Both the position numbers and the translations under genes were made by a program. Of a stretch of DNA of 64,000 nucleotides, positions 9,479 through 57,864 are shown piece after piece. Source of the stretch: Escherichia phage vB_EcoM_G2285; the sequence record MK327933.1; one strand, written 5' to 3'. The notes under the pieces are model-generated. The model was given only the letters and a program-made list of their open reading frames with translations. It was not told the DNA's origin and did no database searches. Within the stretch, counting starts at the first letter, position 1. Each line of letters starts with the position of its first letter.

Positions 9479-11047
9479 ATGACTACTATCAAAACTAAAG
9501 CTCAGCTCGTAGACAAATGGAAAGAACTGCTGGAAGGTGAAGGCCTGCCGGAAATCGCTAATAGCAAGCAGGCTATTATCGCTAAAATCTTCGAAAACCA
9601 GGAAAAAGATTTCGAAGTATCCCCTGAATATAAAGACGAGAAAATCGCTCAGGCATTTGGTTCTTTCTTGACCGAAGCTGAAATTGGTGGTGACCATGGT
9701 TATAATGCTCAGAACATCGCAGCGGGTCAAACCTCTGGTGCAGTAACCCAAATTGGGCCGGCAGTTATGGGTATGGTTCGTCGTGCTATTCCTAATCTGA
9801 TCGCTTTTGATATTTGTGGTGTTCAGCCTATGAACAGCCCTACCGGTCAGGTATTTGCTCTCCGTGCAGTATATGGTAAAGACCCTATCGCTGCCGGCGC
9901 TAAAGAAGCTTTCCATCCGATGTATGCTCCAGACGCGATGTTCTCTGGTCAGGGTGCTGCTAAGAAATTCCCAGCTCTGGCTGCTAGCACACAAACCACT
10001 GTAGGTGATATCTATACTCACTTCTTCCAGGAAACTGGTACTGTATATCTGCAAGCTTCTGTTCAAGTAACAATCGATGCTGGTGCGACTGATGCTGCTA
10101 AATTAGATGCCGAAGTTAAGAAACAAATGGAAGCTGGTGCACTGGTAGAAATCGCTGAAGGTATGGCTACTTCTATCGCTGAACTCCAGGAAGGTTTCAA
10201 CGGTTCTACCGATAACCCATGGAATGAAATGGGCTTCCGTATCGATAAACAAGTTATCGAAGCTAAATCTCGCCAGCTGAAAGCTGCTTACTCTATCGAA
10301 TTAGCACAAGACCTCCGTGCAGTACACGGTATGGATGCTGACGCTGAACTGAGCGGTATTCTGGCTACAGAAATTATGCTAGAAATCAACCGTGAAGTTG
10401 TTGATTGGATTAACTACTCGGCACAGGTTGGTAAATCTGGTATGACCCTGACTCCGGGTTCTAAAGCTGGTGTATTTGACTTCCAGGACCCGATTGATAT
10501 CCGTGGTGCTCGTTGGGCCGGTGAAAGCTTTAAATCTCTGTTGTTCCAGATTGATAAAGAAGCAGTTGAAATTGCTCGTCAAACCGGTCGTGGTGAAGGT
10601 AACTTCATTATCGCTTCCCGTAACGTAGTTAACGTACTGGCTTCAGTTGATACTGGTATTTCTTACGCTGCACAGGGTCTGGCTTCTGGTTTTAATACCG
10701 ACACTACTAAGTCTGTATTTGCCGGTGTACTTGGTGGTAAATACCGCGTATACATCGACCAGTATGCTAAACAGGATTACTTCACCGTTGGTTACAAAGG
10801 CGCTAACGAAATGGATGCAGGTATTTACTATGCTCCTTACGTTGCACTTACCCCACTGCGTGGTTCCGATCCTAAGAACTTCCAGCCGGTAATGGGCTTT
10901 AAAACTCGTTACGGTATCGGTGTTAACCCGTTTGCTGAAAGTTCCCTGCAGGCTCCAGGTGCTCGCATCCAGTCCGGTATGCCGTCTATCCTGAACAGCC
11001 TTGGTAAGAACGCTTACTTTAGACGTGTATATGTAAAAGGCATCTAA
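9479..11047 (+). CDS. 23: Major capsid protein gp23
   Basis: 522 aa, T4 gp23-like. Confidence 0.95.
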   Translation: MTTIKTKAQLVDKWKELLEGEGLPEIANSKQAIIAKIFENQEKDFEVSPEYKDEKIAQAFGSFLTEAEIGGDHGYNAQNIAAGQTSGAVTQIGPAVMGMVRRAIPNLIAFDICGVQPMNSPTGQVFALRAVYGKDPIAAGAKEAFHPMYAPDAMFSGQGAAKKFPALAASTQTTVGDIYTHFFQETGTVYLQASVQVTIDAGATDAAKLDAEVKKQMEAGALVEIAEGMATSIAELQEGFNGSTDNPWNEMGFRIDKQVIEAKSRQLKAAYSIELAQDLRAVHGMDADAELSGILATEIMLEINREVVDWINYSAQVGKSGMTLTPGSKAGVFDFQDPIDIRGARWAGESFKSLLFQIDKEAVEIARQTGRGEGNFIIASRNVVNVLASVDTGISYAAQGLASGFNTDTTKSVFAGVLGGKYRVYIDQYAKQDYFTVGYKGANEMDAGIYYAPYVALTPLRGSDPKNFQPVMGFKTRYGIGVNPFAESSLQAPGARIQSGMPSILNSLGKNAYFRRVYVKGI

Positions 11048-11071
11048 TCTTAATTGATTAAATCTTATTTT

Positions 11072-11097
11072 GGGAGACTTCGGTCTCCCATTTTTGG
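11072..11097. terminator. Bidirectional intrinsic terminator (GGGAGAC-ttcg-GTCTCCC plus T-run)
   Basis: Perfect 7-bp stem with UUCG tetraloop and T-run after the gene 23 stop; also closes the converging minus-strand ORF. Confidence 0.7.
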
Positions 11098-11099
11098 TT

Positions 11100-11369
11100 T
11101 TATTTCTGTGCAATTTCGATGTAAGTTTTCAAAATATTTTGCCAATTAGGCATACCTTCTTGGACATATGCTGGAGAACAGTCTTTGTTTTTGAATGATG
11201 CAAGTTTATCAGTGGCCCAATAACCTTTAGCTCGAGCTTCAGAATCAACTTTCATCCATACTTTGTTGAAGGCGTTACCATTAACTTTTGCACCATATTT
11301 TTCTACTAACTTAACCGCTTCAGCTTCCAGAACTTTTAAAGTATCTCTTAAGAAACGTGCTTTAGTCAT
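11100..11369 (-). CDS. Hypothetical early protein, antisense in the 23-24 spacer
   Basis: 89 aa ORF with GAGGAG Shine-Dalgarno and its own sigma70-like promoter; no recognised homolog. Confidence 0.55.
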   Translation of the reverse strand: MTKARFLRDTLKVLEAEAVKLVEKYGAKVNGNAFNKVWMKVDSEARAKGYWATDKLASFKNKDCSPAYVQEGMPNWQNILKTYIEIAQK

Positions 11370-11399
11370 TTTGTTTACTCCTCTGTAGTTGATAAGTCT

Positions 11400-11429
11400 A
11401 TAGTATCACATACCAAATACGTTGTAAAC
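11400..11429 (-). promoter_or_regulatory. Early sigma70-like promoter (TTTACA-N18-TACTAT)
   Basis: Promoter-like hexamers upstream of the 89-aa ORF; same motif recurs before other minus-strand early genes. Confidence 0.4.
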
Positions 11430-11435
11430 AATCTT

Positions 11436-11443
11436 TATAAATA
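11436..11443 (+). promoter_or_regulatory. Late promoter TATAAATA upstream of gene 24
   Basis: Exact TATAAATA 28 nt before the gene 24 start. Confidence 0.55.
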
Positions 11444-11470
11444 ATCTATATCACATAAGGAAAAAATGCA

Positions 11471-12754
11471 ATGAGTAAAATCCAAAAATTATTGCGTGAA
11501 TCTACAACGTCTACTAGCAACTCAATTGGTCGCCCAAATCTCGTTGCTTTGACTCGCGCTACGACTAAATTAATATATTCTGACATTGTAGCAACACAAA
11601 GAACTAATCAACCTGTTGCTGCTTTTTATGGTATCAAATATCTTAACCCAGACAATGAATTTACATTTAAAACTGGTGCTACTTATGCTGGCGAAGTTGG
11701 ATATGTAGACCGAGAAAAAATTACTGAACTCACAGAAGAATCAAAAGTCACACTAAATAAAGGTGATTTTTTCAAATATAATAATATCGTTTATAAGGTG
11801 TTAGAAGATACACCATTTGCAGATATTCGAGAAAGTGATCTAGAATTAGCTCTTCAGATTGCAGTCGTTCATTTAAAGGTACGGTTATTTTCAGATGCAG
11901 CGGTAACAAGCAAATTTGAAAGCTCTGATAGCGAAATTTCTGATGCAAGATTCCAGATTAATAAATGGCAAACTTCAGTCAAATCTCGTAAACTTAAAAC
12001 CGGCCTCACGGTTGAATTAGCGCAAGATTTGGAAGCGAATGGATTTGATGCCCCTAACTTCTTAGAGGATTTGCTTGCTACTGAAATGGCTGATGAAATT
12101 AATAAAGATATTCTTCAGTCTTTAATTACTGTATCGAAACGTTATAAAGTTACTGGAATTACTGACACCGGATTTATTGACTTGAGCTATGCATCCGCTC
12201 CAGAAGCAGGTCGTTCATTATATCGAATGGTGTGTGAAATGGTATCACACATTCAAAAAGAGACAACTTATACTGCAACGTTTTGTGTAGCCTCAGCTCG
12301 TGCAGCTGCTATTCTTGCTGCTTCTGGTTGGTTAAAACATAAGCCAGAAGATGACAAGTATCTTTCACAAAATGCTTATGGATTCTTGGCAAATGGATTA
12401 CCTCTTTACTGCGATACCAACAGTCCATTAGATTATGTTATTGTGGGTGTTGTAGAAAATATCGGCGAAAAAGAAATTGTAGGGTCCATCTTTTATGCTC
12501 CATACACTGAAGGAGTAGATTTAGATGACCCGGAACATGTCGGTGCTTTTAAAGTTGTAGTTGATCCAGAAAGCTTGCAACCGTCTATCGGATTATTGGT
12601 TAGATATGCTTTATCAGCAAATCCTTACACAGTAGCAAAAGATGAAAAAGAAGCGAGAATAATTGATGGCGGGGACATGGATAAAATGGCAGGACGTTCA
12701 GACTTGTCTGTTTTACTCGGTGTTAAGCTACCAAAAATTATCATTGATGAATAA
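11471..12754 (+). CDS. 24: Head vertex protein gp24
   Basis: 427 aa, gp23 paralog-like, T4 gp24 length. Confidence 0.9.
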   Translation: MSKIQKLLRESTTSTSNSIGRPNLVALTRATTKLIYSDIVATQRTNQPVAAFYGIKYLNPDNEFTFKTGATYAGEVGYVDREKITELTEESKVTLNKGDFFKYNNIVYKVLEDTPFADIRESDLELALQIAVVHLKVRLFSDAAVTSKFESSDSEISDARFQINKWQTSVKSRKLKTGLTVELAQDLEANGFDAPNFLEDLLATEMADEINKDILQSLITVSKRYKVTGITDTGFIDLSYASAPEAGRSLYRMVCEMVSHIQKETTYTATFCVASARAAAILAASGWLKHKPEDDKYLSQNAYGFLANGLPLYCDTNSPLDYVIVGVVENIGEKEIVGSIFYAPYTEGVDLDDPEHVGAFKVVVDPESLQPSIGLLVRYALSANPYTVAKDEKEARIIDGGDMDKMAGRSDLSVLLGVKLPKIIIDE

Positions 12755-12760
12755 AACAAA

Positions 12761-12782
12761 GGGACCTTACGGTCCCTTTTTC
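12761..12782. terminator. Bidirectional terminator (GGGACC-ttac-GGTCCC plus T-run)
   Basis: Hairpin between converging genes 24 and rnlB with flanking A/T runs. Confidence 0.6.
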
Positions 12783-12783
12783 G

Positions 12784-13782
12784 TTATGATACTAATTCAA
12801 TCCATGCAGGACGCAGAACATCTTGCACCATTCGGACTAATTCTTTCTTAACAAGATTCGGATTATCAGATGATGTTAATACAATACCTTCGCGAGAAGT
12901 TTCTTCCAGAATATCTTGAACAGTCAATCCCATCACTTTGCCAAAATCTTTTGGCGTTACATCCCCAATCTTAGAAATCACATTATTAACACGATTTAAT
13001 GTAACATAGCAAGCTAGAACATCAAGCAAGTTTTTGTCAATTTCGGTTAATGGAACCTGAGTTTTAATAGGCTTATCAGACTTTTTCTTTTCACTGAATT
13101 TAGAGTTCTTGCACTTAATAGCTACACGAGTACCGTTTGGCAGCCATTTAGGGAAACAAGGCTTCAGAACATAACCTTCTGCTGTATTATTGCCAATAAC
13201 ATTAGCATCAAATACGCAATTATTTGCTTCGACAAGGTCTTCTGACGCAGTAGCATTATAAGCGGCTAAGACGGAATCAAGGTCGTTTGGAATCGTGATA
13301 AGAGAATCAAATGTTCCACGTCCAAGCATTGGTGCCATTTTAAAACCGAATTCATTACAGAAATCTTGCATTTCGTAATCGGTCAAATACGTATTATCAC
13401 CACTTTCTGTATTGATAAGGATATCGAACACATAAAAATCTTTTTCACCGTAGTCAACACCTTTCTGGATTCCACCACCAGCGAATTCACCAAAGACCTG
13501 ATATGATACAGCTCGAGAACTACCCATTACTTCTTGAACGTTTTTAATAGCCTTATCATACTTCTTGAGTACAATTTCATAACCATAAAAATCTTCTGCT
13601 GGAAGAATAGGGCCTGTGCGCTTGGCGCATGTGACGTTGTCACGTTCAATTATTAACGAGAAGTTGGTCCCATGGATTTTCTCACGTGCTACCCAAACAC
13701 CAGTAGACAAACCATTAGTGTAGAGTTTTTCAATAAACTTAGAGTTATAGTGGTTTTCAAGACTGCTGTATTTCTTAAACAT
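12784..13782 (-). CDS. rnlB: RNA ligase 2 (RnlB)
   Basis: 332 aa; nucleotidyltransferase lysine motif EKIHG; matches remembered T4 Rnl2. Confidence 0.9.
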
Positions 13783-13873
13783 AAATCACCATTATAAATA
13801 ATAATATCAAAATAATTAGCAGAGACTCTATCTCTGGCCCAATGTTTAATTTGAATGGATAGAACCTAGATTC

Positions 13874-13900
13874 ATTATACCATCAAAAAATGTAAAGCAT
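13874..13900 (-). promoter_or_regulatory. Middle promoter (MotA box ATGCTTTA plus TATAAT)
   Basis: MotA-box-like element about 13 nt upstream of a TATAAT -10, upstream of rnlB. Confidence 0.4.
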
Positions 13901-13901
13901 A

Positions 13902-14153
13902 TTAGAACTTGATTTCTATCCAGCGCCCATCACGCTGGTCGTGATTAATTTTGTACTGAAAGCCATTATCACGTAACCACTGCCCGACTTGCTCGGTGAT
14001 AGTTAAATCATTCTTTGACGGGTAGTACGTGAATTGTGTCTGGCCTTTGTCAGCGGCTTTCTCTGCCATCGCAGAGAAGTTAGTAATAAAATCACTCAAC
14101 AAATTAGCTTTAGTGGCCAGAGCCCTTTCTCTTAATTCCTGTGCAAAACTCAT
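13902..14153 (-). CDS. Hypothetical protein (24.2/24.3-like position)
   Basis: 83 aa ORF in T4-like position. Confidence 0.5.
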   Translation of the reverse strand: MSFAQELRERALATKANLLSDFITNFSAMAEKAADKGQTQFTYYPSKNDLTITEQVGQWLRDNGFQYKINHDQRDGRWIEIKF

Positions 14154-14350
14154 TTCTTCACCTTTTTGTTAATCAAACGTTTACGGTATACAACTTTTTC
14201 TTTTGCTTTAAACTTTGACCGAGCTATCTCGGCTTTAGTCCATAGTAATCCAACTTCTTTAGGTTGTAAACCAATTTTTTGAGCAATTTCTACGAATGAA
14301 AATCCCGCCTCATGTAATGTATAAACTTCAACTTCAGCTCTCATAATCAA
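14150..14350 (-). CDS. Hypothetical small basic protein
   Basis: 66 aa ORF overlapping neighbour by ATGA. Confidence 0.5.
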   Translation of the reverse strand: MIMRAEVEVYTLHEAGFSFVEIAQKIGLQPKEVGLLWTKAEIARSKFKAKEKVVYRKRLINKKVKK

Positions 14351-14409
14351 TCCCGTACTATTTGGTTTGTGCCATTATATACATTAATCTCAAGTTGTGT
14401 TTTGTATGC

Positions 14410-14440
14410 TTTAAAAACGAAGAAAGGGGCCGAAGCCCCT
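14410..14440 (-). terminator. Intrinsic terminator after hoc (GGGGC-ttcg-GCCCC plus T-run)
   Basis: Hairpin with tetraloop followed by T-run on minus strand just past the hoc stop. Confidence 0.6.
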
Positions 14441-14445
14441 TACGA

Positions 14446-15576
14446 TTATGGATATGTATAGATGATACCAGTTTCCAAAGCAGTTTTATGGATGATGTAT
14501 CCATTACGTGATTCTTGAACATCAACTTCTGGATAGTCTTTCAACATCTTCTGAAGAGTGTAACGATGCAGGTAGTATTTACTATCCGGATCTTCAGTTT
14601 TCCAATCTTTACCTTCTTCAGTCATTTTTTGTATTTCATCCATAACCCACCAACCGCACCAGATGTAAGCTGAAGTACGATGTGGAAGAGGATGAACATA
14701 AGGTAATTCACCTTCTGGTTCTGGAGCAACTTTATCAGTTACCTGAACTTGACCTTCCGCTGTAATAGTTTTGCTATCATAATCAGTAGCAGTAACAGTA
14801 GCAGTAACTTCAATAGTTTGACTTCCAATAGATGAGGTATCAACGGTATATACATTAGTTGACCCTTCTACAGGAGAAGAATCTTTCTTCCATGAATACG
14901 TAATTTGCGCTTCTTCTGGAGCATCCGTAACATTAGCCGTAAATGTAGCTGAAGCATCTTGCTGAACGTTAATAGAAGGAGGAGTCAATGTAACCTGTGG
15001 ATTCATTGTCTTCTTATTAACCGTTAATGATACTTCATTCGAAGTAACTTCCTTTGCATCATAATCTGTCGCGGTTACTTGGGCTACACATTTAATTCTT
15101 TTTACTCCACTTGTAGTTGGAGTATAGCTAAATGTAGAGTTAGTTTCTCCACCAACCTGTGAATCATCTACATACCATTGATAAGTAGCGTTTGCGCCCG
15201 ATGGCTGCGAAGCTAAAGCGGCAGTAAATTCAATAGCTGTTCCGATTACTCCAGCTGAAGGGCTATTAGGAGTTACGGCTAAGGTAGTCGACTGTGTCTT
15301 ATTTTTAACTGTGATAGTTGTTGTCGCTTCAGCCGTTTCCGGGCCTCCTTCAGAAAGTGTATTTGTTGCAACAACTTTAATTGTTTTTGTTCCAGCAGGT
15401 CCTTTTAACACATAATCAAAAGTTTCTGCCGATCCTACTTGAGGAGCATCGTCTACACTCCATGCATAGGTAATAGTTCCGCCTCCAGTTTCACCACTGG
15501 GTGTAGCAGTAAACTGCTGAGTCTGATCTATAACTCCGGTAGGTGTTTTAGGAGTTATATCAACTGTAAAAGCCAT
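14446..15576 (-). CDS. hoc: Highly immunogenic outer capsid protein Hoc (Ig-like repeats)
   Basis: 376 aa, matches remembered T4 Hoc along its length. Confidence 0.9.
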   Translation of the reverse strand: MAFTVDITPKTPTGVIDQTQQFTATPSGETGGGTITYAWSVDDAPQVGSAETFDYVLKGPAGTKTIKVVATNTLSEGGPETAEATTTITVKNKTQSTTLAVTPNSPSAGVIGTAIEFTAALASQPSGANATYQWYVDDSQVGGETNSTFSYTPTTSGVKRIKCVAQVTATDYDAKEVTSNEVSLTVNKKTMNPQVTLTPPSINVQQDASATFTANVTDAPEEAQITYSWKKDSSPVEGSTNVYTVDTSSIGSQTIEVTATVTATDYDSKTITAEGQVQVTDKVAPEPEGELPYVHPLPHRTSAYIWCGWWVMDEIQKMTEEGKDWKTEDPDSKYYLHRYTLQKMLKDYPEVDVQESRNGYIIHKTALETGIIYTYP

Positions 15577-32675: not shown

Positions 32676-32701
32676 GCACAAAAGGGAGACCGAAGTCTCC
32701 C
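32676..32701 (-). terminator. Intrinsic terminator (GGGAGAC-ttcg-GTCTCCC plus T-run)
   Basis: Perfect hairpin and T-run on minus strand just past the 59-aa ORF stop. Confidence 0.65.
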
Positions 32702-49517: not shown

Positions 49518-49535
49518 GGGAGACCGAAGTCTCCC
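49518..49535 (-). terminator. Intrinsic terminator after gene 32 (GGGAGAC-ttcg-GTCTCCC plus T-run)
   Basis: Hairpin identical to those at 32684 and 57840, followed by a T-run on minus strand. Confidence 0.65.
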
Positions 49536-49541
49536 AATTTA

Positions 49542-57839: not shown

Positions 57840-57864
57840 GGGAGACCGAAGTCTCCCATTTTTG
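57840..57864 (+). terminator. Intrinsic terminator after gene 35 (GGGAGAC-cgaa-GTCTCCC plus T-run)
   Basis: Perfect hairpin plus ATTTTTG right after the gene 35 stop. Confidence 0.65.

Follow-up and report, generated by a model that had tools for sequence, protein, structure and literature searches.

A probable early accessory gene in a variable slot between genes 23 and 24 of Mosigvirus phages

T-even phages and T7 carry small accessory proteins (AsiA, Arn, Dmd, Acb2/Vs.4 and the T7 gp0.x proteins; ~60-100 aa) that are expressed early from sigma-70 promoters, are dispensable and have a patchy distribution, and it is to these that we liken the gene described here. In T4, the place in which this gene lies, between the major capsid gene 23 and the capsid vertex gene 24, holds segD, a free-standing GIY-YIG homing endonuclease gene. 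Edgell et al. (2010) could not identify a segD-specific promoter, and listed the activity of SegD as not determined. For the T4-type phages, the Krisch laboratory has proposed that recombination at the promoter-early stem-loop (PeSL) serves to shuffle ORFans (Arbiol et al. 2010, PMC2839356; Comeau et al. 2014, PMC4122927); the PeSL literature reports that such groupings are less frequent in the structural gene cluster.

The locus itself has been described in RB69. The site homologous to the one analyzed here was predicted by Nolan et al. (2006; PMC1524935 supplements) to be an early promoter (Pe:109605, score 29.9); they also listed a late promoter, Pl:109573, for gene 24, and reported the terminator "23-><-RB69ORF188c", which TransTerm predicted on the plus strand only. 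Our literature searches on RB69ORF188c/189c and on the accessions returned this report only. The gene, its early promoter and the adjacent terminator have been on record, by annotation or prediction, since the genome papers on RB69, and the feature in itself matters little.

We analyzed a 64,000-nucleotide stretch of phage DNA (hereafter, the window). The 501 bases around the ORF matched 169 phage records, 145 of them at 95% identity or more. The best matches were Mosigvirus (RB69-like T-even) phages from E. coli and Shigella, and the source phage is a Mosigvirus. In the near-identical phage PhAPEC2, the flanking gp23 and gp24 genes are followed by minus-strand rnlB, 24.2, 24.3 and hoc, in agreement with the ORFs of the window. 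A previous reading, made from the sequence alone, had described an 89-aa minus-strand ORF between genes 23 and 24 with a GAGGAG Shine-Dalgarno sequence. The ORF listing returned this frame with an ATG start, and the Shine-Dalgarno sequence is found 8 nt before it (Table 1).

Table 1. Features of the slot between genes 23 and 24, with positions in the window
Feature	Position	Strand	Basis
Left flank: gene 23 (major capsid protein)	9479..11047	plus	ORF listing and PhAPEC2 annotation
Terminator hairpin of gene 23, with UUCG loop and U-tract; marks the 3' boundary of the ORF cassette	11071..11090	plus	
ORF, 89 aa, stop codon included	11100..11369	minus	ORF listing; phrog_6003 match; dN/dS; AlphaFold2 model
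Shine-Dalgarno sequence GAGGAG	11378..11383	minus	8 nt 5' of the ORF ATG; read from the sequence
T-even early (sigma-70) promoter, GTTTACA-N17-TACTAT, TG extended -10	11400..11429	minus	Promoter scan; enriched early pattern
Gene 24 late promoter, TATAAATA	11436..11443	plus	Pattern search; back-to-back with the early promoter
Right flank: gene 24 (capsid vertex protein)	11471..12754	plus	ORF listing, annotation and tblastn

The ORF product belongs to a protein family that is already catalogued and is therefore not new. It matches the phrog_6003 profile (E 2.7e-44, residues 1-89 of the 90-position profile), which is also the family of RB69ORF188c/189c and includes JS98 orf173, IME08 orf166 and VR20_187. 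By tblastn, the family is present in 218 phage records. In ~120 of these the protein is at least 90% identical to that of the window, and almost all other Mosigvirus copies are 97-100% identical to it; the 98 remaining records fall below 60% identity and, among the matches listed, are mostly Dhakavirus and Gaprivervirus at 27-37%. Metagenomic intermediates with 60-70% identity bridge the Mosigvirus and Dhakavirus/Gaprivervirus groups. AV118 is the sole record with a protein identical to the ORF product of the window. Codon 64 (window 11178-11180) specifies cysteine here (Cys64, within NKDCSP) and glycine in most other Mosigvirus-type copies retrieved; one further sequence, P0002, also has cysteine.

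Further homologs are found in ABPH49-like Acinetobacter phages (~140-150 kb), where the gene lies in long arrays of small same-strand ORFs without a Pfam match. The homolog there has a hairpin terminator of its own, and a clear sigma-70-like promoter precedes it in two loci; a T7 gp0.6-like gene is found nearby in one locus. This setting is typical of early accessory genes. We also observed that these homologs, whose proteins are ~55-75% identical, share a leader motif, GGCA-N9-GCCAGCCAC, ~20-40 nt 5' of the start codon (L004 2961-2982, L012 4961-4982, L014 4624-4645 and 4962-4983, L015 4961-4982). The motif also precedes one neighboring gene, could by eye form a small hairpin, and may be an mRNA-stability or translational element.

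To model the protein, we ran AlphaFold2 on an alignment of 18 family sequences in which M1, K3, F6, N30, G31, N32, N35, A45 and Q70 are invariant. The resulting model (mean pLDDT 93.9, pTM 0.79) contains helices at residues 3-25, 31-48 and 76-88 and a beta-hairpin at 52-60/66-70. An ABPH49-type relative in the BFVD database has the same fold (TM 0.88). The family is hydrophilic and almost cysteine-free, and the pI lies between 9.2 and 9.9 in 17 of the 18 members despite ~30% identity; we regard a basic pI as weak evidence.

The length of the ORF is not significant by itself, as spurious antisense ORFs of 156-198 aa occur nearby in the same AT-rich region. That longer frames arise there by chance, and that a generic sigma-70 scan of the region found 4 promoters where 4.6 were expected, no better than chance, would fit a frame that is merely open in an intergenic spacer and is no gene. 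Such a frame would not be expected to have dN/dS values far under 1, which we obtained in pairwise Nei-Gojobori comparisons of unsaturated close and intermediate pairs (omega 0.04 for ABPH49 vs P0013, with 17 synonymous and 3 non-synonymous differences; 0.09 for JS98 vs VR20; 0.16 for the window vs P0016). Synonymous sites are saturated between the window and P0005 ORFs (pS 0.79, pN 0.21). Nor would a chance frame have at least 18 homologs that extend over the full length, at identities as low as 28%, and share invariant residues, a model of the quality described above, or a conserved early promoter and ribosome-binding site, the GGAG core of which is retained 7-9 nt from the ATG in the JS98, VR20, P0016, P0005 and P0019 loci. 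The homolog alignment, the AlphaFold2 model, the conserved promoter and ribosome-binding site and the dN/dS values effectively refute the chance-frame explanation, the least probable of those we considered. Because of its conservation, its dN/dS and its structure model, and not because of its length, we take the ORF to be a genuine gene.

Upstream of this gene, a promoter scan identified TTTACA-N17-TACTAT with a TG extended -10 (11428-11400), for which transcription is expected to start near 11392-11394 on the minus strand. The sigma-70-like promoter of the sequence-only reading is therefore recovered in both of its hexamers, with a spacer of 17 nt and not 18. A pattern specific to early promoters, GTTTAC-N16-18-TANNNT, occurs at 14 sites in the window compared to 3.2 expected, and 13 of the 14, the ORF promoter among them, are on the minus strand. 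The ORF promoter closely resembles the other early sites (GTTTACAA...TGTGATACTAT): it combines GTTTAC, the 17-nt spacer, TACTAT and the TG extended -10 with an AT-rich upstream region (the complement of TATAAATA) and an orientation that places it before an ORF. As there is no TGCTT MotA box between its hexamers, it is not a middle-type promoter, and we rejected that assignment. Ahead of the homologs from Dhakavirus, Gaprivervirus and metagenomic T-evens, its hexamers are kept and the spacer has diverged.

The late-promoter motif is found at 19 sites in a pattern search that predicts 7.0. The copy at gene 24 is 7 bp away from the early-promoter -35 element and is conserved in all T-even loci examined. 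The class of the ORF promoter and its location on the minus strand support the earlier proposal that an early-type unit, complete in itself, lies within the cluster of late capsid genes; our literature searches for a transcriptome or time-course study of RB69 or a Mosigvirus found none that was usable. A second early-class sequence, GTTTACAACC...GGATTACTAT, is located on the minus strand at window 14242-14271, inside a 24.3-like ORF (14150-14350), and is presumably an internal promoter for 24.2 and rnlB. In the comparable region of RB69, Nolan et al. (2006; PMC1524935) predicted the early promoter Pe:112451.

At its 3' end, the gene faces the hairpin that follows gene 23, which had been read as a bidirectional terminator. 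The hairpin folds with -16.8 kcal/mol on the plus strand and -13.5 kcal/mol on the minus strand, and is followed by TTTTTGGTTT on the plus strand and by AAAATAAG on the minus (ORF) strand. Because the minus-strand tail has no U-tract and the hairpin is predicted as a terminator on the plus strand only, in agreement with the TransTerm result for RB69, we do not find support for the description as bidirectional. By comparison, the gene 24/rnlB terminator (12758-12779) scores on both strands. Judged from these tails, minus-strand transcripts may pause at the gene 23 hairpin or read into gene 23 in antisense.

If transcripts did read through, transcription itself could be the function, with the antisense RNA damping premature expression of the capsid protein and the ORF being incidental. 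The missing U-tract on the minus strand makes such read-through plausible, and the next terminator-like site on that strand (9987-9971) is well within gene 23. This explanation has to contend with a protein that is under strong purifying selection and folds confidently, with ABPH49-like homologs that lie in early-gene arrays and not beside capsid genes, with the many T-even phages that have an empty slot and no early promoter in it, and with VR20, where a T-run follows the hairpin on the ORF strand and would block read-through. Given the purifying selection and the homologs far from capsid genes in unrelated phages, we consider a purely antisense-regulatory role unlikely, with a chance of being correct that is very small.

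The hairpin is itself a repeated element. Identical 18-20-nt copies are found at 32684-32701, 49518-49537 and 57840-57858, making four in the window with that of gene 23, and the JS98 and LF82-9 loci have an identical stem. The repeated sequence is GGGAGAC-UUCG/CGAA-GUCUCCC. In our 501-base search, the second match in each record corresponds to this hairpin, and we rejected its reading as a paralog of the ORF. At 32.6-32.7 kb and 49.45-49.54 kb the hairpin lies 30-40 nt upstream of minus-strand early promoters, forming PeSL-like terminator-promoter composites, and the copy at 57.8 kb is directly 5' of a late promoter.

We then compared the slot between genes 23 and 24 across T-even phages and found four states. 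The slot is empty, with 81-85 nt that contain the terminator and the late promoter only, in Tequatrovirus RB32, Karamvirus EnC15 and Jiaodavirus KP179; it holds segD alone in T4, T6 and RB55; it holds the ORF alone in the window, JS98 and VR20; and in Dhakavirus IME08 and the Mosigviruses AV109 and LF82-9 it holds the ORF followed, after 3 nt, by a SegD homolog. The position that the sequence-only reading had given for T4 segD is correct, in the same slot and in the same minus-strand orientation. In RB32 the promoter and the ORF are both absent. Where the ORF is present in Mosigvirus, Dhakavirus, Gaprivervirus and several metagenomic T-evens, it is always between genes 23 and 24 and on the opposite strand. 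Dhakavirus, Gaprivervirus and related metagenomic T-evens have two tandem gp24 paralogs (24a and 24b) by the slot (L002 1-2399, L003 1-2394, L007 1337-3901, L010 1338-3897, L022 1-1429), compared to one in the window and in T4.

The neighboring core genes do not follow these differences. The gp24 of the window is at least 95% identical to that of hundreds of phage records, and tblastn matches to gp24 are found in 1418 phage records, compared to the 218 with the ORF family. Because RB32 gp24 is among those at 95% identity or more and yet the RB32 slot is empty, we conclude that slot content is uncoupled from the neighboring core genes. The RB69 record gives a partial match (92% identity over 56% of the query), in which indels of +1 and -1, together with clustered substitutions (AY303349 109291-109531; L005 1937-2177), break the frame into ORFs of 29 and 41 aa, those annotated RB69ORF189c and RB69ORF188c. 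These frameshifts are either real decay in a laboratory phage or an error in the 2003 sequence. The split ORF of the RB69 record and the genera with an empty slot indicate that the gene is non-essential.

The exchange of slot content is seen most directly in LF82-9, which, like AV109, carries a Dhaka-type ORF allele (31% identical at the protein level) plus a SegD homolog. The LF82-9 flanks are 95-96% identical to the window and align to 9935-11103 and 11378-14940. The upstream junction of the replacement falls right after GAGGAG, which is shared along with the promoter; on the opposite side are the hairpin, likewise shared, and the gene 23 3' end. The last gp23 codons are of the Gaprivervirus type. 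The SegD homolog of LF82-9 is 57% identical to T4 SegD (E 3e-86). Together, the four slot states and this replacement of allele plus segD between near-identical flanks support the earlier suggestion that the locus is a hotspot for gene exchange.

The association with segD raises the possibility that the ORF is part of a homing element, in which its product might serve SegD as a helper or an immunity factor, and that the window holds a remnant from which segD has been lost. The ORF-segD operons of IME08, AV109 and LF82-9, with their 3-nt gap, are what one would predict from this proposal, as is the fact that segD occupies this slot in T4 and is preceded there by a homologous promoter-like sequence. 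It is opposed by the ~120 Mosigvirus records that, with JS98, VR20 and several metagenomic T-evens, have the ORF without segD, by the presence of segD without the ORF in T4, T6 and RB55, and by the ABPH49-like phages, which carry the ORF and no endonuclease gene nearby. From the ORF-only, segD-only and ABPH49-like loci we conclude that the ORF and segD occur independently, and we regard membership in a homing element as quite unlikely, if somewhat less so than a function in antisense.

A role in the capsid, such as that of an assembly chaperone or a regulator of gp23 or gp24, would account for the conserved position between genes 23 and 24 in three T-even genera. Against this, the gene is on the opposite strand and has an early rather than a late promoter. 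T4, RB32, Karamvirus and Jiaodavirus form the same capsid without having the gene, and RB32, with its empty slot, has a gp24 that closely matches that of the window. As the context in the ABPH49-like phages is not one of capsid genes and consists of early-accessory-type arrays, a capsid-specific role is disfavored, and we consider it highly improbable. From these comparisons we are strongly confident that the ORF is a real, accessory, early-type gene that is swapped as a module.

What the protein does was approached by sequence, profile and structure searches. When the ORF and all 18 family members were scanned against Pfam, NCBIfam and PADLOC, no match passed the threshold; matches to DUF4859, DUF5380, SSO6904 and EcoRI were sub-threshold, each in few members only, and were rejected. 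Searches of PDB sequences with the single sequence and with a profile gave nothing better than E 0.1, and we discarded the matches at or beyond that value, to the RFC1 BRCT domain and to de novo helical bundles. With the AlphaFold2 model, Foldseek found no match in the PDB and a family member only in BFVD. An exhaustive HMM search of 1.84 billion representative proteins produced 9 matches. Those from outside the family are artefacts of repeats or chimeras: in P0025 and P0026, both long proteins with repeats, the match is to a low-complexity or NGN-containing segment, and P0023 comes from a chimeric 701-nt contig. The family member P0016 (90 aa, L007 4001-4273) has the JGI name "NADPH-dependent curcumin reductase CurA", a spurious annotation. 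More than 200 GenBank phage records name the ORF product hypothetical, and the database names are likewise "hypothetical protein".

These searches bear out the statement that the protein has no recognizable features, since they gave no family or fold match in Pfam, NCBIfam, PADLOC, the PDB or Foldseek. The structure prediction that had been called for yields a confident model with no PDB fold match, and a homolog with a housekeeping function, which would have spoken against the sequence-only reading, was not found in family or fold searches. We also found no likeness, in sequence or fold, to known anti-phage defence proteins or to solved anti-defence proteins, and the sequence, profile and structure searches returned no homolog or fold of known function that would back a binding, takeover or counter-defence role. 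We treat the regulatory or anti-defence role suggested by the sequence-only reading as conjecture.

We propose that the early promoter, the ribosome-binding site and the 89-aa ORF form a one-gene cassette, bounded by the gene 24 late promoter on one side and by the gene 23 hairpin on the other. Leftward transcription of the ORF in the first minutes of infection would be by host RNA polymerase with sigma-70, and the TATAAATA promoter would later fire rightwards for gene 24. The predicted product is small, soluble, cysteine-poor and basic, and is modeled as three helices and a beta-hairpin with no catalytic signature. Because it is small, soluble and basic and lacks a catalytic signature, we suggest that it may bind, stoichiometrically and without enzymatic action, to an acidic protein or nucleic acid of the host, and that this binding would serve host takeover or counter-defence. 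The gene is swapped as a unit through recombination between the conserved sequences on either side, and in some lineages it moves with the SegD-family homing endonuclease gene 3 nt downstream. The Dhaka-type allele may have reached Mosigvirus through SegD-associated co-conversion, as the gene arrangement suggests.

Taken as a whole, an early one-gene accessory cassette with a binder product and a history of module exchange is the explanation that we consider reasonably probable. Its individual parts differ in strength, and we offer the role in binding, takeover or counter-defence tentatively, as a possibility that falls somewhat short of an even chance. Of the readings compared, the one that we favor is that of an early accessory protein, dispensable and swapped as a module, which would bind a target in the host. 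A bolder version, in which the family is a new-fold early effector that binds directly to a host defence or a competitor phage function and so neutralizes it, with the Mosig and Dhaka alleles (~30% identical) as alternative specificities that co-conversion driven by SegD shuffles among genera at this slot, is in our view unlikely.

The ORF is compact and dispensable, has a confident model and no characterized relatives, and is thus suited to a screen for host interaction or counter-defence in therapeutic E. coli phages. That two deeply divergent alleles swap between otherwise near-identical phages also makes it a candidate for such a screen. With its four natural states, the slot is therefore a useful system in which to study how free-standing homing endonucleases drag neighboring cargo across phage genera.

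Among known genes, RB69ORF188c/189c, JS98 orf173, IME08 orf166 and VR20_187 agree with the ORF of the window in family, place and orientation; the window ORF is intact, whereas the RB69 reference frame is broken. T4 segD shares the slot and orientation of the ORF and has a homologous promoter-like sequence and the same late promoter upstream. We located this promoter-like sequence on the minus strand at ~107253-107281 of NC_000866 (L020 2354-2382), ~20 nt 5' of the segD ATG and homologous in position to the Mosigvirus early promoter. It reads TTTACA-N17-TATTAT with a TG extended -10 and fits 10 of 12 consensus positions; it is a consensus match only, with ATTTACA in place of GTTTACA. The gene products are different, as SegD has 223 aa with a GIY-YIG domain, and the 89-aa ORF product has no sequence or domain relation to it. 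The ORF product is too small for the GIY-YIG (Seg) family and shows no Pfam match beyond the sub-threshold DUF4859.

Compared to the PeSL, the window promoter and stem-loop are at opposite ends of the ORF and do not form one fused intergenic unit, the element upstream of the early promoter is the gene 24 late promoter and not a stem-loop, the hairpin is oriented as a terminator of the late gene 23, and the locus belongs to the structural gene cluster. With its promoter and stem-loop on opposite sides, the ORF cassette is not a strict PeSL. As in PeSL loci, an ORFan lies between a strong sigma-70-like early promoter and a conserved stem-loop, each of these two elements is a member of a family repeated in the genome, and the indels and replacements between relatives map to the promoter or stem-loop flanks. 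In these respects, the ORF cassette behaves like a PeSL-type module.
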